DNA of 64,000 nucleotides from Patescibacteria group bacterium (GTDB lineage: Bacteria > Patescibacteriota > Microgenomatia > Levybacterales > UBA12049). The notes beneath the pieces were generated by a model. The model saw only the letters and a program-made list of their open reading frames with translations. It was not told the origin of the DNA and did not search any database. The position numbers and the translations under genes are program-made. Shown here in pieces: positions 15,346-30,059 of the stretch. The stretch lies in contig JBBTTO010000004.1 in assembly GCA_038064195.1 (NCBI GenBank), positions 2,357-66,356 on the forward strand, in the 5' to 3' direction. The stretch's first letter is position 1; every line of letters begins with the position of its first letter.

Positions 15346-15756
15346 ATGAATGATCTTTTACCAAGAAGCTTTTGGAGATTTCCGATAATTTCTTTTCCAT
15401 CGTTTATGGAAGACATCGAGGATCTCCTCCCAACATCAAATTTCTTAAACGGGTTATCTGTATTAGAAGACGATAAGAATGTCTATATTGAAGCATCAGT
15501 ACCAGGTCTTGACCCGAAAGAGGTAGATGTTACCTTTTCCAAAGGAGTGCTTACCATAAAAGGCGAGAAGAAGGAGGAAGAGAAAGGAAAGACGTTTCAC
15601 AGAAAAGCAACACGGTCTTTCTTCTATCGGGTAACACCAGGTGACGTTGACCCAAAGGCAGAGCCACAGGCAATATGTAAAAACGGAGTGATGACCGTAA
15701 CATTTGCAAAAGTGCATGAGGCAGAACCAAAAAAGATTGCAGTAAAAACTGCATGA
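15346..15756 (+). CDS. Hsp20/alpha-crystallin small heat-shock protein
   Basis: alpha-crystallin domain (VLEDDKNVYIEASVPGLDPKEVDV..GVLTIKGEK..NGVMTVTF); GGAGGTGA RBS. Confidence 0.85.
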   Translation: MNDLLPRSFWRFPIISFPSFMEDIEDLLPTSNFLNGLSVLEDDKNVYIEASVPGLDPKEVDVTFSKGVLTIKGEKKEEEKGKTFHRKATRSFFYRVTPGDVDPKAEPQAICKNGVMTVTFAKVHEAEPKKIAVKTA

Positions 15757-15878
15757 TTACAAAATGCGCTGGCAGGCTCGGGAAAAGGTAGGTGCGAAAA
15801 CGTGTCTACTGACAGTCTGCCAGCACAAAGAGCTTATCAAATTATTGTAAAAATACACTTGAAAGAAGGTGAGCATAC

Positions 15879-16283
15879 ATGAAGAAAATAAGTGTTACAA
15901 CAACAAAAGATAAAGAGGTTGTCGATATAACAGATGAGATAAATACGGTCCTTACAAAAAGCAAGACAAAAGATGGGCTTTGCCATTTATTCCTCCCTCA
16001 CTCAACAGCAGGCTTAACAACCGCGCTTATAAGTAGTGAGAATGAGCTTGATCTGATAGGCGTATTTGATATTGCTCTCCCACATATCACAAACCAACGA
16101 CATGAACATGAACATAGTCATATCATGAGCCGTTTACCCGATCATATTATTTCCTCTTTCCTTGGAACTTCTTTGGCAATTCCGATTAAAAATGGGGTAC
16201 TTGCCCTCGGAGAGTTTCAGCGAGTAGTACTGGTTGAGTTAAACGGACCGAGAAAACGTACTGTTATGTTGTATTACGATTGA
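15879..16283 (+). CDS. YjbQ/UPF0047 family protein
   Basis: HSTAGLTTALISSENE...GEFQRVVLVELNGP pattern typical of YjbQ. Confidence 0.65.
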   Translation: MKKISVTTTKDKEVVDITDEINTVLTKSKTKDGLCHLFLPHSTAGLTTALISSENELDLIGVFDIALPHITNQRHEHEHSHIMSRLPDHIISSFLGTSLAIPIKNGVLALGEFQRVVLVELNGPRKRTVMLYYD

Positions 16284-16295
16284 GAAAGAAGGATT

Positions 16296-17939
16296 ATGTA
16301 TTTTAAAGACAGAACAGAAGCAGGTCGGCTGCTTGCATACAAACTCAAAAAATATAGAGGTAAAGACGTTGTTGTTTATGCATTGCCAAGAGGTGGTGTT
16401 GTAACTGCGCTTGAAATAGCAAAGTATTTGGATGCTCCTTTAGATTTGATAATTACCCGAAAAATTGGCCACCCAGACAATCCCGAATATGCAATTGCAG
16501 CAACAGCTGAAAATGGACACCTTGTCGGGACTAAGGAAGAACTTGAGTCAGTTGATAAAGAATGGCTGAAAAAGGAAGTCTCAAAACAACGCCTTGAGGC
16601 AAGAAGAAGACGGGAACTCTATCTTGCTGGAAGAGCTGAAATCCAATCCCTTGGAAAAATAGCAATTCTCGTCGATGATGGTATCGCAACTGGGCTGACT
16701 ATGCGCAGCGGGATAAAAGAGCTCAAGCACAAAAAGCCCAAAAAAATTATTATCTCAGTCCCCATAATTCCCAAGACAACGGCCAGTATTCTAAATCAAG
16801 AAGCAAATGACGTAGTGGCGCTTGATATTCCTGAAGATTATGAATTCTTAGGTGCAGTAGGCGCGTACTATAGCGATTTTTCGCCAGTTGAAGATGAGGA
16901 GGTCATCGCAATGCTCAAGGCCTATGAAAAACAGAGAAAAGAACCAATTAAACAAAATCAGGCATTTTTCTCACAACCACTAATTGATCCTACACTCTTT
17001 ACCTTTCCCTCACATAGATACATGGTTGAGAAGTTAAAAGAAATACCCAATCTTACTATTGGAAAATTTTCCCTGGAGCGTTTCCCCAATAACGAACTCT
17101 ATATTATGCTGCATACACATGCAACTGAGCGAGAATGTATCGTTGTTGGATCAATTTCTCCTCCTGACACGAACTTGATTTCTTTCCTTCTCCTGTGCCA
17201 CACATTAAAAAAAGAGAATGCGCATAGTATAACAGCAGTACTTCCTTATCTTGCCTATTCTCGTCATGATAAAAAAGAGTATCAAAGAAGTTATGCGACT
17301 GTACTTATCGGCGAATTACTCAGTACGTCAGGGGCAGATCGTGTTGTCACTGTTGATGTCCATAGTCTGCATGTAAAGCAGCTTTTTCCAATTCCGTTGA
17401 TTTCACTCTCTCCAGCCAAATTATTTGCCGAAGAATTGAAAAAGTTAAACTTACAAAACGTAACAATTGTTGCGCCGGATGAAGGAGCAATAAAACGCGC
17501 TGAAGCGGTAAGAAGAGAGGCAGGAATCAAAAAAGAAATTGCGTATGTTGTAAAAAAACGGACAGCTGATGGAGTAAAACTGATAGAGCTTCATGGAAAA
17601 GTAAGTAAAACTGCAGTTATTGTCGATGATATTCTTGATACCGGTAAAACGCTTATTTCCTGTTGCGAAAAACTCAAGGAAAAAGGCGCTCGGGATATAT
17701 ATATCATGGTTACCCATGGACAATTTAACGGCATTGAATGGAAGCAATTATGGAAACTTGGGGTAAAACGCATGTACTGTACAGATACTATTCCTTTACC
17801 AAAACATGCCAAATCGAAAAATATTACCGTTGTTTCAATTATTCCTTTACTTGTCGATGAATTAAAAGAGGAAAACAAGGATATATTTACCGTTGATGCA
17901 AGTCAACGATACAGCTTTTATGATTATGATGAGCGATAG
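16296..17939 (+). CDS. fusion protein: type I phosphoribosyltransferase domain + ribose-phosphate pyrophosphokinase (PRPP synthetase) domain
   Basis: N-terminal half has PRTase motif ILVDDGIATGLTM; C-terminal half has Prs motifs NELYIML...AVLPYLAYSRHDKK and VIVDDILDTGKTL. Confidence 0.75.
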   Translation: MYFKDRTEAGRLLAYKLKKYRGKDVVVYALPRGGVVTALEIAKYLDAPLDLIITRKIGHPDNPEYAIAATAENGHLVGTKEELESVDKEWLKKEVSKQRLEARRRRELYLAGRAEIQSLGKIAILVDDGIATGLTMRSGIKELKHKKPKKIIISVPIIPKTTASILNQEANDVVALDIPEDYEFLGAVGAYYSDFSPVEDEEVIAMLKAYEKQRKEPIKQNQAFFSQPLIDPTLFTFPSHRYMVEKLKEIPNLTIGKFSLERFPNNELYIMLHTHATERECIVVGSISPPDTNLISFLLLCHTLKKENAHSITAVLPYLAYSRHDKKEYQRSYATVLIGELLSTSGADRVVTVDVHSLHVKQLFPIPLISLSPAKLFAEELKKLNLQNVTIVAPDEGAIKRAEAVRREAGIKKEIAYVVKKRTADGVKLIELHGKVSKTAVIVDDILDTGKTLISCCEKLKEKGARDIYIMVTHGQFNGIEWKQLWKLGVKRMYCTDTIPLPKHAKSKNITVVSIIPLLVDELKEENKDIFTVDASQRYSFYDYDER

Positions 17940-17944
17940 AAACT

Positions 17945-18583
17945 ATGGAAAATTTAGTACGCATAAAAATCAACAGTATAACACTTGAAGGGATGTTGGC
18001 TATTCCTAAAAATGCAAAAGGAATTGTGCTTTTTGCGCATGGAAGCGGCAGCAGTAGATTATCTCCGCGCAATAATTTTGTCGCAACTGTTTTACAGAAG
18101 GCAGGGATTGGAACATTGCTCATAGATTTACTCACAGAACAAGAAGATGAGATATACCAAACCCGTTTTGACATCGACCTCTTAACTGATCGTCTCGTTA
18201 CCATAATAGAATGGCTTAACAAAAATTCTGACACGAAGCATCTATCTCTAGGGCTTTTTGGAGCAAGTACGGGTGCTGCATCTGCATTAAAGGTAGCGGC
18301 AAAACTTGGAAAAAAGATAAAAGCAGTCGTGTCCCGGGGTGGACGTCCTGATCTGGCAATGGATGTATTAGATAAAGTTACCTCACCTACTCTTCTTATT
18401 GTTGGAGGTAATGATTTCGGTGTTATTGAGCTTAATGAACAAGCATTTCAGGTATTAGGATCCACAAAAAAGCTAGAGATTGTTGAGGGAGCCACCCATT
18501 TATTTGAAGAAGAGGGGGCTTTAGCAGAGGTAGCACATCTTGCAACAAGTTGGTTTAAGAAGTATTTACCTAAACAAATTTAA
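17945..18583 (+). CDS. dienelactone-hydrolase-like alpha/beta hydrolase
   Basis: GIVLFAHGSGSS and nucleophile elbow FGASTGA. Confidence 0.7.
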   Translation: MENLVRIKINSITLEGMLAIPKNAKGIVLFAHGSGSSRLSPRNNFVATVLQKAGIGTLLIDLLTEQEDEIYQTRFDIDLLTDRLVTIIEWLNKNSDTKHLSLGLFGASTGAASALKVAAKLGKKIKAVVSRGGRPDLAMDVLDKVTSPTLLIVGGNDFGVIELNEQAFQVLGSTKKLEIVEGATHLFEEEGALAEVAHLATSWFKKYLPKQI

Positions 18584-18588
18584 AGATT

Positions 18589-19590
18589 ATGAAATTAGTC
18601 TTAGTTGGTGATGTCATGTTGGGTCGATTAGTTAATGAAGAACTAAAAAGAGAAAGTCCTAAGTTGCCTTGGGGAGATACATTGCCAATCTTTAAAAATG
18701 CGGATCTGAGAATTTGCAATTTGGAATGTGTTTTGTCAGATGTAGGAGAACCTTGGCCCAACAAAACTTTTCATTTTAGAACTGATGAGAAAAATATTCA
18801 GACGCTTCTGGCAGCAGAAATTGGCATGGTTTCGCTTGCCAATAATCATGCACTTGACTATGGCCATGAAGCACTGCTTCGCATGATGAAAATTTTAGGT
18901 GAAAATGCCATTAATTATGCTGGCATCGGACCAAATTTTTTAGAAGCAGCTGAGCCAGCAATCTGTCGTGTTAATTCTCAAAAAGTAGGGCTTCTTGCAT
19001 TTACCGATAATGAGCCTGACTGGGAGGCAAAAGAAAATAAGCCAGGATTATTTTACGTACCAATTGACCCCGATTCAATCGGGGTTGATGCAAGAGACAA
19101 GAGAGCGCAATATCTTTTTGAGCTAATTCAAAAAACCCGTGATGACGTTGATCTTCTTATAGTATCAGCACACTGGGGACCAAATTGGGGATATTCCCCC
19201 CCAAAGGAGCATATCGCCTTCGCTCACCTTCTTATTGACTCTGGTGCCGATATTATCTTTGGTCATTCTCCTCATGTCTTCCGGGGTATTGAGCTCTATA
19301 AAGACAAACCAATTTTCTATAGTTGCGGGAATTTTATCGACGATTACGCCGTAGATGAAATCGAGAGAAATGATGAGTCTTTCGTTTTTCTTCTTGAGAC
19401 AAAAAAGAGTGGAGTAACAAAACTCCAACTATATCCAACGCTCATCGCAAATTTTCAGGCGAAAAAAGCTCATTCTGAGGATGCAAGACGCATTGGCCTG
19501 CTTATGCAAAAACTCTCAAGTGAACTTGGAACACCTTCGCAGTGGAACAGAGCAAAAGAAATGTTAGAGATACAGATGACTATGAATTAA
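18589..19590 (+). CDS. CapA-family metallophosphoesterase (PGA_cap)
   Basis: LVGDVMLGR N-terminus and LANNHALDYG motif. Confidence 0.8.
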   Translation: MKLVLVGDVMLGRLVNEELKRESPKLPWGDTLPIFKNADLRICNLECVLSDVGEPWPNKTFHFRTDEKNIQTLLAAEIGMVSLANNHALDYGHEALLRMMKILGENAINYAGIGPNFLEAAEPAICRVNSQKVGLLAFTDNEPDWEAKENKPGLFYVPIDPDSIGVDARDKRAQYLFELIQKTRDDVDLLIVSAHWGPNWGYSPPKEHIAFAHLLIDSGADIIFGHSPHVFRGIELYKDKPIFYSCGNFIDDYAVDEIERNDESFVFLLETKKSGVTKLQLYPTLIANFQAKKAHSEDARRIGLLMQKLSSELGTPSQWNRAKEMLEIQMTMN

Positions 19591-19607
19591 GGAATTAACA
19601 GAAGCCC

Positions 19608-21047
19608 ATGGAAATAACACATCATATAAAACAAATAAACAATACGCTCTGGAAAGTCCCGGTCTCATTTCTTGACGGAATGCAGGTGCCGGTCTTCTTC
19701 TTTTTGGATGAAAAGACTCTCGATGATGTTTTGAAAACAGAGCTCGTTGACTACTTAGCAACGATTGCCACACTCCCGGGTATAAAACAAGCGGTTATAG
19801 CTTTGCCAAACTTGAGCCGAACAGATGGTGTTCCAAGCGGGGTGGTTATTGCATCAGATGCAATTGATGGATTTATTTTCCCAGCAGCAGTTGGTTATGA
19901 TATCAACTGTGGAGTCAGGATTTTACGAGCTGATTGCACAGAGGATGAGATAAAATCATCTACCCTAAAACTAGCAAGTCAACTCTTTCGCGAGATTCAT
20001 TCCACCATTGGCCATACACCTTCAATCAAGATTGGCACGGATAAGCTTGATAAGGTCTTACAGGAAGGGGCACATCGTCTCATCAAGGATGGTTTTGGAG
20101 AGGAAGTTGATTCCCATTATGTAGAATCGTTTGGCGTGCTTGAAAATGCAGATCCGCAAGCAATTTCTCAACATGCCAAGAAGAAAGGACGCGAACAGCT
20201 GGGTACATTAGGAGACGGAAGCCACTTTATCCAAATTGACAAGATAACTGAGATTTTCGATGAAGATGCAGCAAATGCATATAACATAAACAAGGGCCAA
20301 CTGATTATTCTTATTCATTCAGACTCAAGAGATCTTGGCCATCAGGTAGCAATTGAAGAGATCCATAAGGTCAAAGAGGAAATGACAAGATACTATAAAG
20401 GATCGGTGCCTTTTGAACTCAGCGGTGTTCCTGTCTCTTCTTTGGAAGGACAGAGATGTTTCAATGCCATGGCTGCAGCTGCAAATTTTGCCTTTGCCAA
20501 CAGGCAAATACTAACACATGAGCTTCGAAAGATATGGAAAGATATTCTGGGTAAATCATGCGGGTCGCTTCACGTGCTTTATGACCATGCACATAATCTT
20601 GCCAAACTTGAGTCTCATATGATTGAAGGACGAAAAGAGAGGCTTTTAGTTCATCGCAGAGGTGCAACACGTGCATTTGGACCAGAATCTTCTGAACTCC
20701 CGGCTGATTATCAGCCAGTTGGACAACCTCTCGTGCTTCTTGGAGCAATGGGAACACCCTCATATCTTCTGAGAGGGTCAGGGCTTGAACAGACATTCGC
20801 TTCAAGTAGCCACGGAGTCGGAAGAGTCATATCATTTACTCGCGGAAGAAAAGATATACAGGGGTCAGTTACAGTAGAAAGTCTTACAACAAAAGGTGTT
20901 ACTGTAGAAGTAGAAACACTTGCAGACATAGGAGGAGATGATCCAAAAACATATAAAAACGTCAACTCAGCTCTTCATATTTTGCAAGCGTCGGGCATTG
21001 CGTATCCCGTTGCACGGCTAGAACCAATTGTCATCGATAAAGGATGA
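19608..21047 (+). CDS. rtcB: RNA-splicing ligase RtcB (paralog 1)
   Basis: GYDINCGVRIL, HRRGATRAF, GAMGT.SY and SSHGVGR motifs. Confidence 0.9.
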   Translation: MEITHHIKQINNTLWKVPVSFLDGMQVPVFFFLDEKTLDDVLKTELVDYLATIATLPGIKQAVIALPNLSRTDGVPSGVVIASDAIDGFIFPAAVGYDINCGVRILRADCTEDEIKSSTLKLASQLFREIHSTIGHTPSIKIGTDKLDKVLQEGAHRLIKDGFGEEVDSHYVESFGVLENADPQAISQHAKKKGREQLGTLGDGSHFIQIDKITEIFDEDAANAYNINKGQLIILIHSDSRDLGHQVAIEEIHKVKEEMTRYYKGSVPFELSGVPVSSLEGQRCFNAMAAAANFAFANRQILTHELRKIWKDILGKSCGSLHVLYDHAHNLAKLESHMIEGRKERLLVHRRGATRAFGPESSELPADYQPVGQPLVLLGAMGTPSYLLRGSGLEQTFASSSHGVGRVISFTRGRKDIQGSVTVESLTTKGVTVEVETLADIGGDDPKTYKNVNSALHILQASGIAYPVARLEPIVIDKG

Positions 21048-21921
21048 GGGATTGGAGAAAAGTATGGATTATTTAATATTATTCATCTCAATACTCTTTT
21101 TTGTACAAATACTTATTCCTTTTGTGCAAAAAAGTCTTCTTTGGCGAAGACGACAATCTTTAATACGCACGCTTGAGCAAAAGAGGAAATCCAGAGTGAT
21201 TACACTGATTCATAGACAAGAGACATTGAGTCTCCTTGGAATTCCAATAACACGCTATATTGATATCGAAGATTCTGAGCAAGTTCTCAATGCGATACGC
21301 ATGACTCCACCCCACAAGGCGATCGACATAATTCTTCATACGCCCGGGGGGCTCGTTCTGGCAGCAGAGCAAATTGCATTCGCATTGAAGCTGCATGAGG
21401 GAAAGATAAGGGTCATTGTTCCACACTATGCTATGTCCGGGGGGACAATGATAGCCTTGGCTTCGGACAAGATCATTATGAGTCGTGCTGCTGCTTTAGG
21501 GTCGCTCGATCCCGTGCTTGGAAGTCCAGGCATAGGATATTACCCTGCGGCTTCTATTGTTCATGCCCTAAGCGTTCCCAATAGAAATCGAGAGGATACA
21601 ACCTTAATTTTGGGAGATATAGCTAAAAAAGGGTTAGATCAAATATATAAGTCTGTTTTTAAATTACTAAGTAAGCATTTTGATGAAAAAAAAGCGTCGT
21701 CACTGGCCTTCACCTTGACACAAGGGAGATGGACGCATGACCATCCGCTTTTTTTCGAACAAGTTAAAGATTTGGGATTACCTGTTACAGACAATGTTCC
21801 TAACGAAATTTATGAACTTATGCAACTTTACTCTCAGCCAACACGGATGAGAGGTGGGGTTGAGTTTATTCCCTCACCCTATGTAGCTCCCGCCCAAAAA
21901 CCAAAGGAGAAGAAAGAATGA
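21028..21921 (+). CDS. membrane-anchored Clp-fold serine protease (SDH/S49-like)
   Basis: N-terminal TM; ILHTPGGLVLAAEQIA...HYAMSGGTMIALASDKIIM..LGSLDP motifs. Confidence 0.6.
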   Translation: MSSIKDEGLEKSMDYLILFISILFFVQILIPFVQKSLLWRRRQSLIRTLEQKRKSRVITLIHRQETLSLLGIPITRYIDIEDSEQVLNAIRMTPPHKAIDIILHTPGGLVLAAEQIAFALKLHEGKIRVIVPHYAMSGGTMIALASDKIIMSRAAALGSLDPVLGSPGIGYYPAASIVHALSVPNRNREDTTLILGDIAKKGLDQIYKSVFKLLSKHFDEKKASSLAFTLTQGRWTHDHPLFFEQVKDLGLPVTDNVPNEIYELMQLYSQPTRMRGGVEFIPSPYVAPAQKPKEKKE

Positions 21922-22334
21922 AAACATTTACGATTATTCCACATACCGCAGATGTACGATTGAGGATTGAGGCAGACTCGCTTGAGAAACTTTTTGTAAG
22001 CTCCCTGAAGGGTATGAATAGAATATTGAATAAGGAATATGAGAAATACCTAGATAAGCATCCTATTCTCGAGGAGGTTTCTGTGACATCTTATGACAAA
22101 ACATCACTTTTGATTGATTTTCTCTCTGAAATTTTGACACGTTCTCATATGCATAAAGCAATTTTTCATACCATTGACCATTTCGGGATAGAAGGTAACT
22201 CTCTTCATGCCCATCTATTAGGAGCACCGGTGGATAAATTTACAGAAGACATAAAAGCTGTTACTTACCATGAGGCAGAGGTTAAAAAAAATGACAAAGG
22301 CGAATATGAGACAACTATTGTGTTTGATATTTGA
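21918..22334 (+). CDS. archease (RtcB activator)
   Basis: MKTFTIIPHTADVRLRIEADSLEKLF N-terminus and 138-aa size; 4-nt overlaps with both neighbours. Confidence 0.7.
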   Translation: MKTFTIIPHTADVRLRIEADSLEKLFVSSLKGMNRILNKEYEKYLDKHPILEEVSVTSYDKTSLLIDFLSEILTRSHMHKAIFHTIDHFGIEGNSLHAHLLGAPVDKFTEDIKAVTYHEAEVKKNDKGEYETTIVFDI

Positions 22335-22378
22335 TTTCAGAATACTCGAAAAACTCATCGAATCAGACTGAATATATT

Positions 22379-23827
22379 ATGAGTATCGATAAAAGCAATT
22401 TCAAAAAAATAAATGCTTATACCTGGCAGATACCTCAAACATTTAGAAGTGATATGCGTGTGCCGGCAATAATTTTCGCTAGCGAGAAGATGCTTGACGA
22501 CATTTTACAAGATAGGTCAATAGAACAACTTATCAATGTCACAACGCTTCCAGGTATCCGTAAGGCAGCACTTGTGATGCCTGACGCGCATGAAGGGTAC
22601 GGATTCCCAATTGGAGGTGTTGCTGCAACAAGCTTCCCAAATGGTGCTATTTCTCCAGGCGGTATTGGCTATGATATCAACTGCGGAGTCAAACTGCTTA
22701 AATCAGACCTCGAGGCATCCTCGCTCAATCACCACCAGGGGTTGCTTGCTAGAAGATTGTACGAGGAAATTCCATCTGGCGTTGGGCATGGTGGAAGACT
22801 GACATTGATTGAAAAACGGCTCGATGAGGTATTGGTAAAAGGAGCAGCATGGATAGTTGATAACGGATATGGGGAAAAGGAAGACATCCATTTTATTGAA
22901 TCTGAAGGATGTTTAGACAATGCTGATCCACAAGCTGTCTCAGATCACGCCAAAAAAAGAGGCAAAGATCAGTTGGGAACACTGGGTGCCGGAAATCACT
23001 TTGTTGAGGTTGATGTTATTGATGAAATTTTTGATGAGACTATTGCATCTACTTTTGGTTTGTCTCTCAATCAAGTCGTGGTACTCATCCATACAGGCTC
23101 CCGGGGACTTGGCCATCAAGTCGCAACCGATTATATCCGTATCATGAATCAATCCATGACAAAATACGGTATTAATGTTCCTGATCGAGAACTTGCCTGC
23201 GCTCCCTTATCTTCTCCTGAAGGAACAGCTTACTTCAATGCGATGGCTGCTAGTGCCAACTTTGCCTTTGCAAATAGAGAGTTGATAGCGTGGGAGGTCA
23301 GAAAAGTGTTTAAGGAAATGTTTGGAGAAAGACTCTCAACGCTTTATGACGTTGCTCACAATATCGCTAAAATTGAAGAGCATGTCATTAATGAAAAAAA
23401 ACGAAGCAGAAAAAAAGTAATTGTTCACAGAAAAGGTGCAACACGTGCATTTGGGCCAAATAGTCCTGAACTTATCGACGAATATAGTCTAACCGGTCAA
23501 CCAGTACTGATCCCGGGAAGTATGGGAACAGCATCATATGTTCTTGCGGGAACTACAGAGGCAATGGAGTTATCGTTTGGATCATGTTGCCATGGAGCAG
23601 GGAGAACATTATCCCGCCATGCTGCCAAAGCACAGATTTCAGGGAAAAAATTAAAGATAGATTTAGAAGAACAAGGAATATTTATTCAGGCCGGGTCAAT
23701 TTCAGACCTTGCTGAAGAAGCACCACTGGCCTACAAGAACATCCATGATGTTGTAGATGTCGTTGATAAAGTAGGGATTGCGAAAAAGGTTGCCAGGCTG
23801 AGACCTGCTGTTGTGGTCAAAGGGTAG
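22379..23827 (+). CDS. rtcB: RNA-splicing ligase RtcB (paralog 2)
   Basis: GYDINCGVKLL, HRKGATRAFGP and SCCHGAGR motifs; ORF-track start 22331 is TTG, first ATG at 22379. Confidence 0.9.
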   Translation: MSIDKSNFKKINAYTWQIPQTFRSDMRVPAIIFASEKMLDDILQDRSIEQLINVTTLPGIRKAALVMPDAHEGYGFPIGGVAATSFPNGAISPGGIGYDINCGVKLLKSDLEASSLNHHQGLLARRLYEEIPSGVGHGGRLTLIEKRLDEVLVKGAAWIVDNGYGEKEDIHFIESEGCLDNADPQAVSDHAKKRGKDQLGTLGAGNHFVEVDVIDEIFDETIASTFGLSLNQVVVLIHTGSRGLGHQVATDYIRIMNQSMTKYGINVPDRELACAPLSSPEGTAYFNAMAASANFAFANRELIAWEVRKVFKEMFGERLSTLYDVAHNIAKIEEHVINEKKRSRKKVIVHRKGATRAFGPNSPELIDEYSLTGQPVLIPGSMGTASYVLAGTTEAMELSFGSCCHGAGRTLSRHAAKAQISGKKLKIDLEEQGIFIQAGSISDLAEEAPLAYKNIHDVVDVVDKVGIAKKVARLRPAVVVKG

Positions 23828-23881
23828 TATGAGGAATCAGAACCATCAACCAACGCAGTATAAAAATTACAAGTAGGAAAT

Positions 23882-24115
23882 ATGGGGAAAGCTAAACAAA
23901 TACAAAAATATCTGCCTTATGTTCCTTTGTGGGAGTTAGAGATAGAAGAGCTTACTGGTCATAATATAGAAATGCAAGGAAGGCAGGATGTAAATAAGCT
24001 GCTCAAAGCGGGGTGGATTTTGCTACATATTTACACGCTTCGTTATCAAGAAGACGGGGTATGGAGGGAGCGGCCAATGGCAATCTTAGGAAAACCAAAA
24101 AGGGGCAAACGTTAA
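23882..24115 (+). CDS. small hypothetical protein
   Basis: 77-aa ORF with AGGAAA RBS 4 nt upstream. Confidence 0.35.
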   Translation: MGKAKQIQKYLPYVPLWELEIEELTGHNIEMQGRQDVNKLLKAGWILLHIYTLRYQEDGVWRERPMAILGKPKRGKR

Positions 24116-24223
24116 TTTTATATTTAAACGTCTTAGAGCTTCTCCTGTATACGATGGATTAATTCTCAATCTTTAAAAGACTGGAAAAAATCTGTGACCT
24201 AAATCACTTTCATTCTTTGATTA

Positions 24224-24706
24224 TTGTCAATGCGAAATACCCTCTTCCTAACGTATTATATTATTATGCATTTTACAATTACGACAAAGCTATTCCATAT
24301 TTCAGATAAAGACTGTCAGTATATAGAAAAACTAGTAAAAAAACTTTTGCAGCTCACACCTTGGAAGGAACCAGACTACCCGCTTCTTGACATACTCCTC
24401 CGAAAGCACAGGAAGAAAAGCCTTGATCATATTGAAAAAAGGCTTATTTTGGAAGGTGCTATACAACCCAAACACGGACACGAAACAATTGATAATCCTG
24501 TATATTATGACGGCACTTTAGATCTTATTCTTCCAAAGAAACGTATTGTGGCAAATATGCTGGGTAAAACAGTACATGAGGCTCTCAAAGATGGGTTTGA
24601 CGAGTTGTTCCTGGAACTTGATAAGTATAAGGGACTACATTTTGCTAATGACAGCGAGTATTACAACCATAGGACAATTCGACAAAATAGGAAAGAAATC
24701 TTATGA
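24224..24706 (+). CDS. hypothetical protein, translationally coupled to the eRF1-like gene
   Basis: 160-aa ORF; its stop overlaps the next ATG (ATGA). Confidence 0.45.
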   Translation: MSMRNTLFLTYYIIMHFTITTKLFHISDKDCQYIEKLVKKLLQLTPWKEPDYPLLDILLRKHRKKSLDHIEKRLILEGAIQPKHGHETIDNPVYYDGTLDLILPKKRIVANMLGKTVHEALKDGFDELFLELDKYKGLHFANDSEYYNHRTIRQNRKEIL

Positions 24707-25164
24707 AAACGATGCAAAAACATAACAAATATTTAGTACTTCTAGTAGATAGAAAACGTGCTCGAATGTTTACCATGAGTAATGGCGTTGTTGAGGCAGA
24801 TGAAGAGCTGATCATTAATGACGTTCCGCAGAAGGTAAAGCACGGCGATGATACTTGGGATGCACAGAATAAAATCTTTCGCCATATCGAAGATCATTTA
24901 CACCGACACTTAACGCTTATTGCCCAAAATACGGCTTCTTACGCTAAGAAAAATAATATAAACAGAGTAATAATTGGAAGTCACAAACCGTTATTTTCAA
25001 AAATCAAAAAACATCTTCCCTATCCGCTTAATAAAAAAGTAGAAGGAACATTTGTTACAGAGCTTAAAGCACCGTTTGGTGAGATAGTCAAGCGGGCAAA
25101 AAATTGCATTGAAAGAGTTGAGGGTAGCGAGGAGGTAAAAAGATATGAAAAATACTTTGCTTAG
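24703..25164 (+). CDS. Host_attach / bacterial eRF1-like (baeRF) family protein
   Basis: YLVLLVDRKRARMF N-terminus and mid-region RHIEDHLHRHL...NRVIIGSH...IKKHLP pattern. Confidence 0.5.
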   Translation: MKTMQKHNKYLVLLVDRKRARMFTMSNGVVEADEELIINDVPQKVKHGDDTWDAQNKIFRHIEDHLHRHLTLIAQNTASYAKKNNINRVIIGSHKPLFSKIKKHLPYPLNKKVEGTFVTELKAPFGEIVKRAKNCIERVEGSEEVKRYEKYFA

Positions 25165-25528
25165 AATAGATACTATTCTTTTTTGGTTACCAAAAATTCT
25201 TGCAATATTATTTATAGGCTTTCTTGCTATCTTTGCATTTGATGTTTTTGAACCACGGGAATCTATTGTGTATGTGATCGGAGCATTTCTTATCCACCTT
25301 ATTCCAAATTTTATTCTCGCAATACTATTGTTTATCGCTTGGAAAAAAGAAAAGCTGGGAGGAGCACTTTTTATACTACTCGCGTTCGTCTTTACAATCT
25401 ATTTCCGAACCTACACACACTTCGTAAACTTTTTACTAGTCTCCTTCCCTGTATTTTTAATTGGAGCATTATTTCTCTTGCATACATATCTGATTGAAAA
25501 AAGGGGAGGAATATATGAAAAAGATTAG
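25145..25528 (+). CDS. hypothetical membrane protein
   Basis: 127 aa with four hydrophobic segments. Confidence 0.5.
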   Translation: MKNTLLRIDTILFWLPKILAILFIGFLAIFAFDVFEPRESIVYVIGAFLIHLIPNFILAILLFIAWKKEKLGGALFILLAFVFTIYFRTYTHFVNFLLVSFPVFLIGALFLLHTYLIEKRGGIYEKD

Positions 25529-25599
25529 AGGCGCTCGAACCTGCAATAAAACCCGACTTGACGGGACAAATAGCTCCTCTCGAAGCCATTAGTAAATCT

Positions 25600-25673
25600 T
25601 GGCTGCGGGACATGGATTCGAACCATGGTAAACGGATCCAAAGTCCGTTGTCCTACCTTTAGACGATCCCGCA
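25600..25673 (-). tRNA. tRNA-Gln (anticodon UUG)
   Basis: cloverleaf with U1-A72, anticodon loop CUUUGGA, T-arm CATGG-TTCGAAT-CCATG, 3' GCCA. Confidence 0.85.
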
Positions 25674-25676
25674 AAG

Positions 25677-25916
25677 TTATTTGAGCCTTCGATTAAGATA
25701 AGCTCTTCCAAAACCAGTTTTCAGCTGTTTTTCTCTGTTAATTGCAGCTGATTTCTTCAGACATGCTTCGTAATAAACAAGAGCAAAAGGTATTCTTAGT
25801 CTAGTCGAGCTGACATTCCCTAAATTATGCTCATTTATCCGAGAAACCAAGTCATCAGTCCAACCAATGTATAATTCATTATCCTTTTTACTCTTCAATA
25901 CGTATGTATAAAACAT
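25677..25916 (-). CDS. GIY-YIG nuclease family protein
   Basis: MFYTYVLKS..ELYIGWTDDLVSRINEHN GIY-YIG core; start taken at the internal ATG with AAAGG RBS. Confidence 0.7.
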   Translation of the reverse strand: MFYTYVLKSKKDNELYIGWTDDLVSRINEHNLGNVSSTRLRIPFALVYYEACLKKSAAINREKQLKTGFGRAYLNRRLK

Positions 25917-25934
25917 ACCTTTAGACGACCCGCC
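25916..25934 (-). repeat. duplicated 5' fragment of tRNA-Gln
   Basis: GCGGGTCGTCTAAAGGTA matches tRNA-Gln 5' end GCGGGATCGTCTAAAGGTA at 18/19. Confidence 0.6.
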
Positions 25935-26293
25935 TGCAGCGCTATGCAAGCGAAGCGCACCATTGCGAGCAGGTCCCGCAGTGTACCCAATATTGTAGCA
26001 TACAATAGCCTCAAAATGGAGGTTTTTAGGTATTATGGAGATCAAGTGGCTCATAAATCCACCCCATAGTTTGACCTTGATATCCCTTTTTGTTATTATC
26101 TCCCCACTCAAGATAAGTATTGATGGGCAATTGCGTTCATTTTTTGCTACTTGAGTATATTTTACATATTTCGCTCGTTTACATATTCAGTTGTTTGTAA
26201 TTAGTTCTTCAAGCTGCATCCACGAGGTCTCTCCTAAGGCTTGGTGGGTGCAGCTTGCACCGGGGTAACTTCGTCGTATCCAGGAGGATAAAC

Positions 26294-26827
26294 ATGACAC
26301 GCAGATCCAAGCCCGGTGAGAGTCAGTCTCCAACCGAAACTACGAGTCAGGATGTGGTGGAAACGCCCACAAAATCCGAGGACGACAAGGTCGCTCGTCC
26401 AAGGAGTGTAACTCACTACCGATGCTCTTTCTGCAATAAAGGCCAGGAAGAGGTCCGGCGTCTCATCGCCGGCCCGAATCGGGTCTACATCTGCGACGAA
26501 TGTGTGCAGCTCTGCCGCGAGATTATCGAAGAGGAGGAACCCGCAAAAGCGGTCATTCAAGATGCCCGCCGGCGTGCGCAGCAGAACGTGGAGAGCCTCA
26601 AAACCACACAACGTCTCCTGAGCGCTGCTCAAACCCTGCTGGAACCCGCATCGATGAATGACGGATTCGTTTCCGACGAGCTGCGTAAGCAGCTTGAGAC
26701 ACAATGCGTCCAGGCCATCCAGAAGGCCGGCGCTAGCTTCGGCCTGAAGTTGGTTCCCGTCGAAGACGCAACTCCGACAGCGGACGAGGCGGGCAGCCAG
26801 AATGGCATCGACGATACCACGGAGTAA
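26294..26827 (+). CDS. stand-alone ClpX-type C4 zinc-finger (ZBD) domain protein
   Basis: [31 protein letters not shown] almost identical in pattern to the ClpX N-terminal ZBD; AGGAGG RBS; ~60% GC. Confidence 0.7.
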
Positions 26828-26983
26828 CAGCTGATTCATGCGAGAGAAAGCACCCCACTGATTCCGAAAGGAGTCTCTCCACGAAAGTGGTATTCGAAAG
26901 AGTAGGGGTGTTTTTGCTATTTATATGCAATTGAAAATATATTACGAAAATAAGAACTTCCGACATTGCTAACTAATACTAGC

Positions 26984-28495
26984 TTAGGTTTGAGGGTTTT
27001 TCTCTCTCACAAATATCCCGCTTGAGGCGTCTTCATAGACTTTTTTCCATCTGCCCTCATACACTAATTGATTGAGACGATTGTAAAGCGGCTTGCTTGA
27101 GCTGATAAAGACAGTATCGTAGTCAGAATGATCTATATCAGTGAAATTCTGTTCGTAGTCATAATACTCTTTAAAGGCACTGTGGTCTTTGTCATCCACC
27201 CACAAATGCATCCTGCCGTCCATACTCGGCTTTATGTCCCGATAATTCCAGATCAGCCATCCCCCCCAGCCATAATAGGTATAAAGATGCCCCTTATCAG
27301 GCATTTTTTCTAAAAACCTCGCTGCTTGAGGAGAGCAGTCAGTGGCATAGCCGCAAAAATCATCCCACGTCATCTGCGTATACTCTGTGAACGGATACTT
27401 CAAGTAACTGACAAATGCGATATAAACAATAAAAAGAATAGTCGGGACGATAAAACGAACCCTTCTGGACTCAGGCTTGATAAATGCAACCAACGGCTTA
27501 AGGTAGGGAAAAGCGAAATAGTACGCCGACCAGCTATAGCGTTTAACTGCAAATGACAGAATATAAAAAACACCCCCACCAAGAGTTGTCGGTACTATTT
27601 CTGAGACTTTTTTCTTGAGGATATACCACACCAATCCGACAAGCGTGACAACCAGAATTAAAATATGATTCAGCCAAGGCATTGATAACTCAGCTGCGGG
27701 CACATATTCACTGACAGCTTTAAGTAAAGGATTGCGGAAATGAAGAAAAGCATCCGTATAGACAGCGCTCCCAAACGGGTTGAGAAGGGGAGTGAGTAGG
27801 ACAAGAATACCGACAAGGATGATCTCTCTACTTTGGCTCAAAGTCGCTTTCACTTTGTAGCCTTGCTCTCTGAAGCTAAAGAGGATTCGGGATGCAGCCC
27901 AAAAAGCAAAAACAGCTGTCCCCAAAATATACTGCCCGTGCATATTGGCCCAGATCCAAAAAAGGATAGGGACAAGATAAAGGGCCTTAGTTGACCCGCG
28001 TTCAAATTTACTGAGTAAATACACAAGCAGTCCGAGCAACATCATACTGACCAGCTGACCTCGAAATGAGACGTTATTAATAGAGCGCTCGATGTAGGCA
28101 AGGACGGGGAAAATAAAAGCCTTCTCCCAAAAATCCAGTTCCCATGCAAGAGCAAAGAAGACAAAGGTCAGCATGACAACTACTGAACCCGCAATCGTCA
28201 ACCCCCAAAATCCACCAAGCGCGAAAATCGCATAATAAAAAAGATCTATCCCCCAGGAGATATTCGCCCAGGCAAAGCCGGCCATGTCAGTTGAGAACGT
28301 ATTGGTGCGGGCGACAGAATGGGTCGCAAAGAACTCCTGACCGTATCTCAGATGCCACCCGAGATCAGCATCTACAGGACGGCTCAATGACGCAATAAAA
28401 ATAAAAATACACGGGAGGAGGATTGAAGTAAGCTTAACGATAATTTTTCCCATAAATTCTTTGCGAATTATAGAGGAGAAGAAGCCAGCACGCAA
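26984..28495 (-). CDS. polytopic membrane protein, possible GT-C-type glycosyltransferase
   Basis: More than 10 TM segments with an early-loop PVDADLGWHL acidic motif and a C-terminal soluble domain. Confidence 0.4.
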   Translation of the reverse strand: MRAGFFSSIIRKEFMGKIIVKLTSILLPCIFIFIASLSRPVDADLGWHLRYGQEFFATHSVARTNTFSTDMAGFAWANISWGIDLFYYAIFALGGFWGLTIAGSVVVMLTFVFFALAWELDFWEKAFIFPVLAYIERSINNVSFRGQLVSMMLLGLLVYLLSKFERGSTKALYLVPILFWIWANMHGQYILGTAVFAFWAASRILFSFREQGYKVKATLSQSREIILVGILVLLTPLLNPFGSAVYTDAFLHFRNPLLKAVSEYVPAAELSMPWLNHILILVVTLVGLVWYILKKKVSEIVPTTLGGGVFYILSFAVKRYSWSAYYFAFPYLKPLVAFIKPESRRVRFIVPTILFIVYIAFVSYLKYPFTEYTQMTWDDFCGYATDCSPQAARFLEKMPDKGHLYTYYGWGGWLIWNYRDIKPSMDGRMHLWVDDKDHSAFKEYYDYEQNFTDIDHSDYDTVFISSSKPLYNRLNQLVYEGRWKKVYEDASSGIFVREKNPQT

Positions 28496-29115: not shown

Positions 29116-29187
29116 GCGGGGGTAGTTCAGCGATAGAACGCTTCCTTGCCAAGGAAGAGGTCGCGGGTTTGATTCCCGTTCCCCGCT
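29116..29187 (+). tRNA. tRNA-Gly (anticodon GCC)
   Basis: acceptor GCGGGGG/TCCCCGC, anticodon loop TTGCCAA, T-loop TTTGATT. Confidence 0.85.
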
Positions 29188-29229
29188 CATAATCAGTTCT
29201 CCCACAAAATGTCTTAAGGACACAACTCT

Positions 29230-29302
29230 GCTGAGGTAGCCAAGGTGGTCAAGGCACCTGTCTGAAGAACAGGCCATGTCAGTTCGACTCTGACCCTCAG
29301 CA
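29230..29302 (+). tRNA. tRNA-Phe (anticodon GAA)
   Basis: acceptor GCTGAGG/CCTCAGC, anticodon loop CTGAAGA, T-arm GTCAG-TTCGACT-CTGAC; unusual 3-bp D-stem. Confidence 0.7.
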
Positions 29303-29329
29303 CCCGCTACCCGCTACCCGCTACCCGCT
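29302..29329. repeat. tandem heptamer (ACCCGCT) x4, same unit as at 5305
   Basis: acccgct repeated four times starting at the tRNA-Phe discriminator base. Confidence 0.85.
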
Positions 29330-29346
29330 TATGATATGATAGAGTC

Positions 29347-29607
29347 ATGAGCATACAGGATATCTTTTATTCTCTCGGGATTTTCTTCATGGTACTCGGG
29401 ATCACAATCCTGGTTATGATCATCGCCCTCCTCTGGACCATCAAACAAAAGATAACCTTTATCCATGATCTGGTTGAAAGACAAGTCATCAGACTTACCG
29501 GGAACTCAACCGATGTAGCCATGGAGCTGGGATCTAAAGTCGCCTCAGCCGCTGTTCGAAGAGTGAGAGACGCAATCACGAAGAAAAAGGAAGACTCCTC
29601 AATATAG
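29347..29607 (+). CDS. small hypothetical membrane protein
   Basis: 86 aa with one N-terminal TM and a basic C-terminus. Confidence 0.4.
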   Translation: MSIQDIFYSLGIFFMVLGITILVMIIALLWTIKQKITFIHDLVERQVIRLTGNSTDVAMELGSKVASAAVRRVRDAITKKKEDSSI

Positions 29608-29697
29608 CCTTTTTACGAAAATACTGACCCCTACTTTCCTAAATGTATCTTTTCTCTTATAATGAGCAGACAAATATTGCCTATAGAAGCTACGAAA

Positions 29698-29780
29698 TGC
29701 GGATGTGGTGAAATGGTATACACGCTGGCTTCAGGTGCCAGTGCCCGCAAGGGTGTGGAGGTTCAACTCCTCTCATCCGC
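29698..29780 (+). tRNA. tRNA-Leu (anticodon CAG)
   Basis: long variable arm; anticodon loop TTCAGGT; acceptor GCGGATG/CATCCGC. Confidence 0.85.
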
Positions 29781-29837
29781 ACATAGACCTACTGTAGATA
29801 GTTTCGTAGAGCGTAATTTGGTATAATCGGTGAACTC

Positions 29838-29923
29838 GCGGATGTGGTGAAATGGTATACACGCTACCTTGAGGTGGTAGTGCCCGCAAGGGTGTGGAGG
29901 TTCAACTCCTCTCATCCGCACCA
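29838..29923 (+). tRNA. tRNA-Leu (anticodon GAG)
   Basis: near-identical to the previous Leu apart from anticodon stem-loop TTGAGGT; encoded CCA; TGgTATAAT promoter upstream. Confidence 0.85.
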
Positions 29924-29997
29924 GGGCGATTAGCTCAGCTGGCTAGAGCGCTTCATTTACACTGAAGATGTCGGGGGTTCAAATCCCTCATCGCCCA
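29924..29997 (+). tRNA. tRNA-Val (anticodon UAC)
   Basis: GGGCGAT acceptor, anticodon loop TTTACAC, begins directly after the Leu CCA. Confidence 0.85.
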
Positions 29998-30059
29998 CAT
30001 TTCTTTCTCTCCTCTTGCTTGACAACAAAATGAGAATTTGACATGATGGATGATACTCC

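Follow-up and report, generated by a model that had tools for sequence, protein, structure and literature searches.

A stand-alone ClpX-type zinc ribbon in an accessory cassette of a Patescibacteria genome, a candidate decoy for ClpX ligands

The N-terminal zinc-ribbon domain of ClpX (ZBD) carries a patch shared by adaptors, trigger factor and lambda-O as their docking site (PMC7804408), and the isolated E. coli domain supplied in trans inhibits the breakdown of sigma-S by ClpXP that RssB mediates (PMC7226468). Small stand-alone ZBD proteins also occur, among them tandem double-ZBD forms of ~100-118 aa; the ZBDs are mostly Chloroflexota-like. ZBD proteins are further carried by 57 phage records, and the ZBD in the 110-aa protein of the Escherichia phages PhiR44_2 and P88 is ~80% identical to that of E. 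coli ClpX; these phage proteins could plausibly act as decoys or in hijacking. In the literature searched, we found no characterised case of a natural free-ZBD inhibitor of ClpXP. ClpX is itself among the COGs reported as lost on the CPR stem (bioRxiv 10.1101/2020.07.15.205187). The locus described here encodes a 177-aa ZBD-only protein and lies in a 64-kb stretch of DNA, the whole of which was analysed and is called the window. The DNA comes from a groundwater CPR bacterium. The genome being of the Patescibacteria/CPR type, its owner is likely an epibiont, in line with what the preliminary description had considered possible.

The cassette and its ZBD-only protein

The composition of the locus agrees with the GC-rich islet announced by the preliminary description for a genome of ~40% GC. 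The stretch 26215-26880 has a GC content of 0.571 and the coding sequence one of 0.578, against 0.425 for the window; with sliding windows of 600 nt over the 64 kb (mean 0.425, sd 0.033), the top value is 0.578, starting at 26213, a deviation of ~4.7 sd and the sole peak above 0.52. The GC-rich stretch has sharp borders at ~26205 and ~26895 (57% GC for 26205-26895 versus 42.5% for the window). Codon usage points the same way, the GC3 of the ZBD-only gene being 0.652 versus 0.394±0.047 (maximum 0.482) for the 30 ORFs of at least 250 aa in the window, and its synonymous-codon log-likelihood lying 2.8 sd under the mean.

This stretch is part of an accessory cassette (Table 1), located ~0.4-0.6 kb from a tRNA-Gln gene which forms a common anchor across lineages. 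An orthologous cassette is found at the same site in lineage A (locus L011), and lineages B (the sister) and C (more distant) are devoid of it; in lineage B, nothing separates the upstream element of tRNA-Gln from the final codons of the gene for the membrane protein. In the window lineage (W), imperfect direct repeats of 11-13 bp flank the cassette (CTCATAAATCC at 26050-26060 and CTCACAAATATCC at 27006-27018), and lineage B has one copy similar to them; such an imperfect repeat could equally mark a deletion in lineage B. The locus thus combines a composition and codon usage that deviate from the resident genome (GC 0.57 vs 0.425) with a patchy presence among close relatives, a tRNA gene nearby and a donor lineage found for the ZBD block only. 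No integrase was found at the cassette locus, PADLOC returned no meaningful defence-system match, and the GIY-YIG gene adjoining the cassette is a separate insertion, missing from lineage A.

Table 1. Features of the cassette locus (window coordinates)
Feature	Position	Strand	Remarks
tRNA-Gln(UUG), anchor of the variable locus	25600..25673	-	100% identical in lineage B
Accessory cassette, ~0.95 kb	26064..27000	+	in W (window lineage) and lineage A (L011), not in B (L175-177) or C (L178-180)
Sigma-70-like promoter: TTGACC, 17 nt, TG-extended TATTAT	26071..26099	+	10/12 consensus matches; predicted only
Long 5'-leader hairpin, start of the GC-rich stretch	26210..26257	+	21-nt arms, 81% complementary
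Antisense ORF, 201 aa	26234..26839	-	no Pfam family; not kept in L011
AGGAGG RBS	26282..26287	+	6 nt 5' of ATG; CAGGAGGA kept in L011
ZBD-only protein CDS, 177 aa, acidic (pI 5.0), soluble	26294..26827, stop included	+	exact protein (P0001) on at least 20 contigs, several assemblies
N-terminal 40 aa, S/T/E/P-rich, predicted disordered, orphan	26294..26413	+	55% DNA identity to lineage A
clpX-derived block, aa 41-83 (C4 zinc ribbon and start of the ClpX linker)	26414..26542	+	Thermomicrobiales ClpX 42/43 identical
C-terminal 94 aa: two predicted helices, then disordered acidic tail; orphan	26543..26824	+	23% identity to lineage A, collinear
3' structured element	26846..26915	+	GCACCCC/GGGGTG closing stem around three short hairpins, then U5

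The promoter-like site lies within the low-GC part of the cassette and its counterpart in L011 is TTGACC-17-TAATAT. Both the perfect AGGAGG and the hairpin reported earlier were recovered. The arms of the latter (26210-26230 and 26237-26257) fold with an MFE of -41.4 kcal/mol and a z of -4.96, and the equivalent in L011, 81% identical at the DNA level, has a z of -4.84. The 3' element is terminator-like and cloverleaf-shaped, with a GAAA tetraloop in each of its three hairpins (MFE -33.1, z -4.7); its architecture is identical in L011 with pair-preserving changes, and it is the best-conserved part of the cassette between W and A (90% DNA identity). Rfam holds no family for the leader or the 3' element at E<=1. 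The islet had also been described as bounded by GAGGTCTCTCC / GGAGTCTCTCCAC repeats, which did not withstand scrutiny: their common 8-mer occurs three times in the window versus 1.7 expected, 24 of 100 shuffles reach three copies, it is not kept in the ortholog, and its second copy belongs to the 3' RNA structure. The GTCTCTCC direct repeats, attributable to chance in the shuffle test, were discarded as island ends, and instead of att-like sites the hairpin and the 3' element represent structures of the transcript. Each cassette end occurs only once in the window and IMG/VR has no match to the 3' element, and the ends were accordingly not taken for repeated or mobile elements. The long antisense ORF is an artefact of high GC and no gene, as initially suspected, the longest antisense ORF at the orthologous locus being 85 aa.

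The ZBD peptide quoted in the preliminary description is found exactly in the protein. PF06689 (zf-C4_ClpX) matches aa 43-80 over profile positions 2-39 of 39 (E 7.7e-20, 70.9 bits for a gathering score of 27), the zinc-ligand cysteines C44, C47, C66 and C69 stand in CSFC...CDEC, which fits CxxC-(18-22)-CxxC, and the domain aligns to 1OVX and 2DS5. By its Cys pattern and score, the protein is assigned to zf-C4_ClpX, with putative zinc binding and dimerisation. The view that this ZBD stands alone is confirmed: the protein is devoid of an AAA+ module, since the NCBIfam ClpX models (TIGR00382 / PRK05342) score 45.8 and 49 bits versus cut-offs of 370.75 and 359, with a match limited to model positions 4-65. 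No AAA Pfam domain was matched, and the protein, which stops 94 residues past the ZBD, contains no Walker A (GPTGxGKT), IGF loop or C-terminal small domain. The 64-kb window likewise contains no clpX AAA+ module: tblastn with a ClpX aligned only 26411-26680, corresponding to ClpX residues 8-106 (the ZBD and the next stretch), apart from two insignificant matches in the AAA+ part (E 0.22 and 1.9). ClpX adaptor families of the SspB/RssB type gave no match in Pfam or NCBIfam.

The protein had been described as a ZBD followed by an acidic tail. The tail is present, with seven D/E and without any K/R among the last 22 residues, but it does not directly follow the ZBD: a predicted helical stretch of ~70 residues comes in between. 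The helices are predicted at 68-120 and 128-148 (pLDDT ~70), the first extending the ZBD helix, in a single-sequence AF2 model that is of low confidence as a whole (pLDDT 63) and too weak for annotating the C-terminus by structure. A hydrophobic segment is absent from the N-terminal 40 aa.

Donor, mosaic structure and age

The block of aa 41-83 is identical at 42 of 43 positions (98% aa) to the N-terminus of full-length ClpX from Thermomicrobiales (Chloroflexota), and the E. coli ZBD is ~70% identical to that of the 177-aa protein. All of the best 80 loci among GTDB species representatives fall in Thermomicrobiales, Sphaerobacteraceae, Nitrolancea or Chloroflexia, and 79 of the best 80 metagenome loci are Chloroflexota clpX; these clpX matches have 54-70% GC. 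At the nucleotide level, blastn of 26417-26538 gave 88-89% identity to Thermomicrobiales clpX, and the homology is limited to these ~125 nt, even with the ±10 kb flanks of the clpX loci included. Sequence comparison therefore identifies the 5' end of a Thermomicrobiales-type clpX as the donor of the ZBD block, in place of the actinobacterial donor envisaged at first. The deviating GC and GC3, together with this donor, substantiate the initial proposal of a horizontally derived, compositionally foreign islet. The islet does not represent one intact foreign gene, a donor being detectable for the ~125-nt ZBD block alone.

No donor was found for the other two thirds of the protein, and HMMER detected no homolog of its C-terminal 94 aa among 1.84 billion representative proteins. 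Searches of 5.8e9 clustered proteins (by words), 1.84e9 representatives, GTDB genomes, JGI metagenomes and IMG/VR returned no family members other than this gene and a single ortholog (P0003); on this basis, the transfer of a whole gene from a Thermomicrobiales ZBD paralog was rejected. The single weak extra match, P0141, is a repeat-rich, unrelated protein. An origin of the non-ZBD parts from another frame of clpX or from its flanks was also rejected, as neither blastn nor tblastx supported it in 160 Chloroflexota loci ±10 kb, and the Chloroflexota 'stand-alone' ZBD proteins of 95-98% identity are clpX genes split by frameshifts or contig ends. The ORF is a three-part mosaic, in which a captured 43-residue ClpX N-domain lies between an orphan disordered N-terminus and an orphan helical, acidic C-terminus. 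It provides a clean example of gene birth, with a domain fragment of ~125 nt captured into an orphan frame.

The acquisition had been presented as recent. The cassette is common to two CPR lineages whose overall divergence corresponds to a dS of ~0.9-1.3 (0.85-1.19 for the two flanking genes), and W and A share the derived state PNR where ClpX has PNQ. For the ZBD, dN is 0.036 and dS 1.29, i.e. a dN/dS of ~0.03, figures that represent one pairwise comparison over 42 codons because only two alleles exist in ~5.8 billion clustered proteins. Capture of the ZBD predates the W/A split at a dS of ~1, and for this reason the acquisition is not considered recent. This is consistent with the GC3 of the gene (0.65), which lies below that of donor-type clpX genes (0.71-0.83) and indicates an old, partly ameliorated gene. 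Outside the ZBD, the W and A copies share 48-55% DNA identity, and both ORFs are intact with the same architecture. The ZBD is thus under strong purifying selection, and the rest of the protein drifts yet has stayed open, helical and acidic. The ZBD is nearly invariant across Thermomicrobiales families as well; its conservation could therefore partly reflect constraints of fold or dimer, not retained partners.

A possible decoy role and its alternatives

We tentatively propose that the ZBD-only protein is a trans-acting decoy for ligands of the ClpX N-domain. It would act via the surfaces canonical for a ZBD, those of zinc-ribbon dimerisation and the peptide-binding patch on which adaptors and certain degrons dock. 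The free ZBD would compete with the ClpX hexamer for these ligands, or pair with ClpX N-domains, so that ZBD-dependent proteolysis would be dampened and the AAA+ motor left untouched. Such a decoy or anti-adaptor role is plausible at the biochemical level, by analogy, because the isolated E. coli ZBD inhibits adaptor-mediated degradation by ClpXP (PMC7226468). Since the domain has stayed identical to that of Thermomicrobiales ClpX and the CPR stem is reported to have lost ClpX, the favoured target would be the ClpXP of a Chloroflexota host or neighbour; the main alternative would be a clpX residing elsewhere in this genome. Neither a signal peptide nor a transmembrane segment nor a recognisable secretion signal was found in the protein, the hydropathy of which peaks at 0.89 over 15 residues, and this was counted against a decoy acting across cells. 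Chloroflexota were not among the co-occurring partners that the Hainich study reported (PMC8672522) and none of the Thermomicrobiales clpX contigs examined came from Hainich samples, so that no co-occurrence support for a Thermomicrobiales host was found in these sources.

A more specific hypothesis, which we regard as improbable, is that of a host-mimicking effector: the CPR episymbiont would keep an exact copy of the ClpX recognition domain of its Thermomicrobiales host in order to jam or redirect the regulated proteolysis of that host, and the acidic termini, which evolve fast, would have functions in delivery or in an arms race. To our knowledge, hardly any hosts or effectors of CPR/Patescibacteria are known. 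If the hypothesis were true, sequence alone would, through this gene, identify the lineage that hosts an uncultured CPR clade, and the gene would be the first predicted CPR effector against a host AAA+ protease. The ZBD-only gene is a concrete and cheaply testable candidate for interference with the proteolysis of a partner, and gives a sequence-based hint at that partner.

The genome could also possess a ClpX of its own outside the window, possibly from Chloroflexota, whose substrate choice would be tuned by the ZBD-only protein as an adaptor or anti-adaptor, in the way the preliminary description suggested, or as a heterodimerising N-domain. This would fit with the cytoplasmic appearance of the protein, with the modulation of ClpXP by a ZBD in trans (PMC7226468), with the Clp protease gene predicted in at least one Saccharibacterium (PMC10768705) and with the stand-alone or tandem ZBD proteins that many ordinary genomes encode without any deviation in GC and, as is to be expected, beside a ClpX of their own. 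However, ClpX is reported as lost on the CPR stem (bioRxiv 10.1101/2020.07.15.205187), the 64-kb window has no clpX, the cassette is dispensable since sister lineages live without it, and a Thermomicrobiales-type ZBD is not expected in a native CPR ClpX. We hold this in-cell regulation to be rather unlikely; were the genome nevertheless to hold its own clpX, the finding would reduce to an accessory regulator of an ordinary kind, acquired from a foreign source.

Somewhat less probable still is a zinc ribbon co-opted for a role unrelated to Clp, as a dimerising or peptide-binding Zn module (e.g. in a regulator or a scaffold) conserved by fold constraints only. The ZBD is indeed promiscuous, as it is seen joined to HTH regions, RidA, PDZ and Clp_N, and also in cyanobacterial sigma factors (PMC11119718), and the orphan helical C-terminus could hold the real activity. 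Yet only one or two of the 43 positions differ from the donor ClpX after a dS of at least 1.3, the conserved positions including surface residues and the 'EEEEP' linker start, whereas drift would be expected at exposed positions once the module was freed from its original partners; moreover, conservation is lowest in the C-terminus that would be the functional part (23% identity).

That the gene is a decaying, functionless relic of random foreign DNA uptake seems very improbable. CPR cells scavenge DNA, the donor accounts for the ~125-nt fragment only and close relatives do without the cassette, but the dN/dS of ~0.03 in the ZBD and the maintenance of the ORF, the RBS, the promoter-like site and both RNA structures in two lineages at saturating synonymous divergence argue against decay, and a random stretch of 95 codons at such GC is estimated to stay open with a probability of only ~3%. 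A chimeric assembly or contaminating DNA of a high-GC organism, to which the abrupt jump in composition might point and which the preliminary description had named as a possible refutation, has a negligible chance, because the region 26101-27000 (900 bp, both junctions) is identical in at least 10 loci from independent ENA and Logan assemblies of different runs, including a 1,075,823-bp contig (a ~1.08-Mb CPR chromosome), amid housekeeping genes, with a low-GC, native-like cassette promoter and outer flanks and a diverged orthologous copy at the same site in lineage A.

Comparison with known ClpX-related systems

The closest counterpart of the captured domain is the ClpX N-domain itself (PF06689; E. 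coli 1OVX, 2DS5-2DS8), with which it shares the CxxC...CxxC ribbon at 42/43 identity to Thermomicrobiales and ~70% to E. coli; the dimer and the adaptor/degron patch are presumably the same. Unlike ClpX, the ZBD-only protein has no AAA+ ring, its flanks are orphan and it belongs to a phylum reported to have lost ClpX. The proteins annotated as stand-alone 'ClpX C4-type zinc finger proteins' resemble it in being small, made of one or more ZBD modules without ATPase, and uncharacterised. However, the GC of those examined matches that of their own genome and they have no similarity to the N- or C-terminus of the 177-aa protein, in which the ZBD is foreign to the genome and matches the ClpX of another phylum.

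With the small phage ZBD proteins (PHROG phrog_6797, phrog_12435 and phrog_5259), the likeness is that of a genetic parasite encoding a short protein with a host-ClpX-like ZBD. The match of phrog_6797 (E 4.5e-15) covers only profile positions 64-105 of 107, i.e. the ZBD, and not the full length; in the phage proteins the ZBD is C-terminal, the acidic helical extension is missing and no relationship exists beyond the ZBD, and they are carried by viruses instead of a cellular epibiont. The free ZBD as a natural ClpX decoy is nevertheless a testable general hypothesis for the uncharacterised ZBD-only proteins of bacteria and phages.

Adaptors of the SspB/RssB type differ in that they bring a ZBD-binding peptide, whereas the ZBD-only protein holds the docking site, the ZBD itself. 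The Ira proteins have the adaptor as their binding partner and show no sequence relationship to the ZBD-only protein. It is with these anti-adaptors and competitive inhibitors of ClpXP (the isolated ZBD in vitro; IraD, IraM and IraP on RssB) that the ZBD-only protein would share its proposed logic, which is to compete for docking while the motor is not inhibited.

A free ClpX zinc-binding domain in a GC-rich islet

The 177-aa protein (P0001) is a free Thermomicrobiales-type ClpX N-domain, encoded by a dispensable cassette of a CPR genome. Its sole Pfam domain, zf-C4_ClpX (PF06689; residues 43-80, E 7.7e-20), makes it a member of that family, and the NCBIfam ClpX equivalog models match it over their first ~60 positions only, with 46-49 bits against cut-offs of ~360-370. 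The lone domain and the confined match establish a zinc-binding domain (ZBD) without the AAA+ motor; identity as ClpX is ruled out, since tests for the AAA+ features found none of them. The AF2 prediction from the single sequence, of low confidence (pLDDT 63), comprises in order a disordered N-terminus, the ZBD, a long helix (68-120) continuing the ZBD helix, one more helix (128-148) and, at the end, an acidic tail that is disordered. With a pI of 5.0 the protein as a whole is acidic; it has no hydrophobic segment and no secretion signal.

The gene lies in the only compositional islet of the window, whose GC content is 42.5%. In 600-nt sliding windows (mean 0.425, sd 0.033), GC peaks at 0.578 from position 26213, the sole stretch above 0.52 in 64 kb; at 60-nt resolution it rises at ~26205 and falls at ~26895. 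Codon usage shows the anomaly too, with a GC3 of 0.652 against 0.394±0.047 (maximum 0.482) in the 30 ORFs of the window that have 250 aa or more, and a synonymous-codon likelihood under window usage that is 2.8 sd low. The observation made in the preliminary description, a GC jump around a stand-alone ZBD gene with a perfect AGGAGG, is confirmed, as are the 5' hairpin (fold z -5) and the artefactual antisense ORF (201 aa), a by-product of high GC with no family match and no conservation in the ortholog. The interpretation given there proved partly right. The GAGGTCTCTCC / GGAGTCTCTCCAC repeat said to bound the islet has no significance: the 8-mer that its two copies share is found 3 times in the window against 1.7 expected, and the ortholog does not preserve it.

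An assembly artefact was rejected as wholly improbable, the junctions being identical across loci of separate assemblies: 26101-27000, both junctions included, is the same in 10/10 fetched P0001 loci. The exact protein is found on at least 20 contigs, among them one of 1,075,823 bp from Hainich groundwater (0.1 µm fraction) and others from another ENA assembly and from several Logan assemblies made from different runs. The neighbours are ordinary chromosomal genes (ThrRS, PheT, TyrRS, RecG, class A PBP) whose products NCBI labels 'Patescibacteria group bacterium', and the flanking membrane protein has relatives whose annotations name Daviesbacteria, Gottesmanbacteria and Woesebacteria, all Microgenomates-like CPR.

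Features of the cassette and its surroundings (window positions; W, window lineage; A, lineage with the ortholog P0003)
Feature	Position	Strand	Description	DNA identity W vs A
RNA-repair-type island	14826-25600		~10.8 kb, in W, absent from A and B
tRNA-Gln	25600-25673	-
GIY-YIG gene	within 25677-25990	-	79 aa, ATG at 25916
Second tRNA 5'-end copy	25918-25937		GCGGGTCGTCTAAAGGT
Leader	25990-26205			85%
Promoter-like site	26071-26099		TTGACC-17-TGnTATTAT, good consensus match, predicted
5' hairpin				81%
Antisense ORF	26234-26839	-	by-product of high GC
Ribosome-binding site			AGGAGG, 6 nt 5' of ATG
ZBD gene	26294-26827	+	177-aa ORF
N-terminal coding				55%
ZBD block				84%
C-terminal coding				48%
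3' element	26846-26915 (L011 1831-1900)		closing stem around three GAAA-tetraloop hairpins, then U5; cloverleaf-shaped	90%
Five tRNA genes	29116-29998		Gly, Phe, Leu, Leu, Val, within 0.9 kb

Donor lineage, mosaic make-up and age of the gene

By similarity of sequence, the donor lineage is Thermomicrobiales-like Chloroflexota and not Actinobacteria, as had been suggested. Residues 41-83 carry one substitution (R for Q; 42/43 identical) relative to the N-terminus of the full-length ClpX in many Thermomicrobiales, and the E. coli ZBD is only ~70% identical. With one genome per GTDB species, the best 80 loci all belong to Chloroflexota (Thermomicrobiales, Sphaerobacteraceae, Nitrolancea or Chloroflexia), and the 14 translated all encode clpX, full-length unless the contig ends. 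In JGI/ENA metagenomes, 79/80 best loci are the same kind of Chloroflexota clpX, the remaining one being the Hainich gene itself. Locus GC over all fetched loci spans 57-69% (5th-95th percentile). Candidate 'stand-alone' ZBD proteins among the Chloroflexota matches proved to be clpX broken by frameshifts or contig ends. Many database 'ZBD-only' proteins 95-98% identical to the query (L012, L187, L188 and others) are frameshift-split clpX from long-read metagenome assemblies, inside tig-clpP-clpX operons, and such entries inflate the apparent count of stand-alone ZBD proteins.

The gene as a whole is, from the distribution of its matches, a mosaic. In a comparison with 160 clpX loci of Chloroflexota, flanks of up to 10 kb included, positions 26417-26538 are the sole homologous part (88-89% nucleotide identity to clpX); neither the first 120 nt of the coding sequence nor its C-terminal 285 nt nor the non-coding ends match anything there in any frame. 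When the C-terminal 94 residues were run with HMMER against all of 1.84 billion representative proteins, nothing came back except the protein itself and a spurious hit to a repeat protein.

Another allele, the 190-aa P0003 at locus L011 of an unrelated run, occupies the same site in a related low-GC genome, in the order tRNA-Gln, conserved leader, hairpin, RBS, ORF and 3' structure, its ORF having 55-61% GC and its flanks ~36-49%. Both alleles carry PNR where every ClpX compared has PNQ, which points to a single capture of the ZBD before they parted ways. Synonymous divergence of the ZBD between W and A (dS 1.29, dN 0.036; Nei-Gojobori, 42 codons) equals that of the genome, two flanking genes giving dS 0.85-1.19 and dN 0.08-0.13 among W, A and the cassette-free lineage B, and fits vertical inheritance from the W/A ancestor onwards. 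Judged from these rates, the ZBD protein sequence has been held almost fixed under strong purifying selection, against which the reading of the gene as junk is very improbable. The recent acquisition proposed earlier is unsupported, given that the ZBD has diverged like the genome and that GC3 is 0.65 versus 0.71-0.83 in donor-type clpX, which fits partial amelioration. At nucleotide level W is no less identical to Thermomicrobiales clpX (up to 87%) than to A; with synonymous saturation, such identity is uninformative on recency. The remaining parts of the protein, ~23% identical between W and A, are collinear (pairwise E 4e-4) and in both alleles open, helical and acidic. The estimated chance that 95 random codons of this GC remain free of stops is ~3%, and the termini therefore appear to be translated under loose constraint or diversifying pressure, the pattern of the two alleles fitting both.

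A variable cassette beside tRNA-Gln

In lineage B (L175-177), whose flanking genes are ~82% identical, the cassette is absent and the upstream element of tRNA-Gln passes without a break into the final codons of the gene for the membrane protein; the cassette is also absent in the more distant lineage C (L178-180; 67%). The indel corresponds to W ~26064-27000, flanked in W by the imperfect repeats CTCATAAATCC and CTCACAAATATCC, which fit insertion in W or deletion in B alike. The best-conserved cassette piece is the unusual 3' element, with pair-preserving changes between W and A; it matches no Rfam family, occurs just once in the window, and could be more than a terminator, e.g. an mRNA-stabilising or processing signal.

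The island at 14826-25600 contains two RtcB ligases, archease, an SDH/NfeD protease, a baeRF family-10 protein, DUF7670 and a PRPP-synthase fusion; in A and B, a Ddl-like gene directly abuts tRNA-Gln instead. This makes tRNA-Gln a hot spot, with variable DNA at either side. The stand-alone GIY-YIG gene (Pfam E 7e-15), missing in A, B and C, lies between tRNA-Gln and its conserved upstream element, and 5' of it are the second tRNA 5'-end copy, a lone TGCGGGA and a GC-rich insert of 41 nt. The arrangement resembles a small GIY-YIG element that entered tRNA-Gln in its 5' part and, in doing so, restored the tRNA; the 125-aa ORF of the gene caller overruns the tRNA remnant and its start is probably wrong. 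In the five-tRNA cluster, the last tRNA-Leu and tRNA-Val directly abut (29923/29924), and parts of the cluster are 95-100% identical in lineage B versus ~82% for protein-coding genes.

Possible targets and known relatives

The ZBD is a dimer on which one hydrophobic patch serves to dock adaptors (SspB, RssB) as well as trigger factor and substrates, for instance lambda-O (PMC7804408), and the isolated domain in trans inhibits the RssB-mediated breakdown of sigma-S by ClpXP (PMC7226468). We propose that the protein would compete for ZBD ligands or pair with ClpX N-domains, and action as a decoy on some ClpX system is the probable outcome. The favoured target would be a ClpXP of Thermomicrobiales type that belongs not to the CPR cell but to a host or neighbour, because the ZBD block, exposed and first linker residues included, is kept as in the donor and because the phylum generally lacks ClpX, one of the COGs whose loss has been placed by inference on the CPR stem (bioRxiv 10.1101/2020.07.15.205187). 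This location is weakened by the missing secretion signal, by the search for host evidence of a Thermomicrobiales-type partner, which found none, and by the scope of the clpX search, which covered the 64-kb window and found none there; a decoy with its target in the host is accordingly a tentative proposal. A target inside the CPR cell itself is a similarly tentative proposal, against which stand the general lack of ClpX in the phylum and its absence from the window. That the protein mimics a host ZBD is unlikely, though of high interest if true, and co-option of the domain for a role unrelated to Clp is likewise improbable.

Free ZBD proteins are a known, uncharacterised kind, with many single- and double-ZBD examples of ~100-190 aa, and those examined reside in genomes of matching GC. 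Tandem two-ZBD proteins of ~100-118 aa are widespread and uncharacterised (P0004, P0005, P0007, P0022, P0039, P0048, P0051, P0054, P0071, P0077; loci L182, L183), the members examined again being in matching-GC genomes; a further uncharacterised set has four ZBDs and an HTH-like N-terminus (P0020, P0034). Phages too carry small ZBD proteins (phrog_6797, 12435, 5259), the domain occurring in 57 phage records, 21 of them Pseudomonas phages. In E. coli phages PhiR44_2 and P88, a 110-aa protein of unknown function has a C-terminal ZBD ~80% identical to that of E. coli ClpX; the gene lies at L186 1309-1641 in PhiR44_2 and is misannotated 'carboxylate-amine ligase' in P88. The phage case parallels the notion that a parasite carries a ZBD like that of its host. 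What is new here is a cross-phylum, near-identical ZBD in a CPR genome, the mosaic origin of its gene, and an unusual cassette architecture with variable presence among close relatives.
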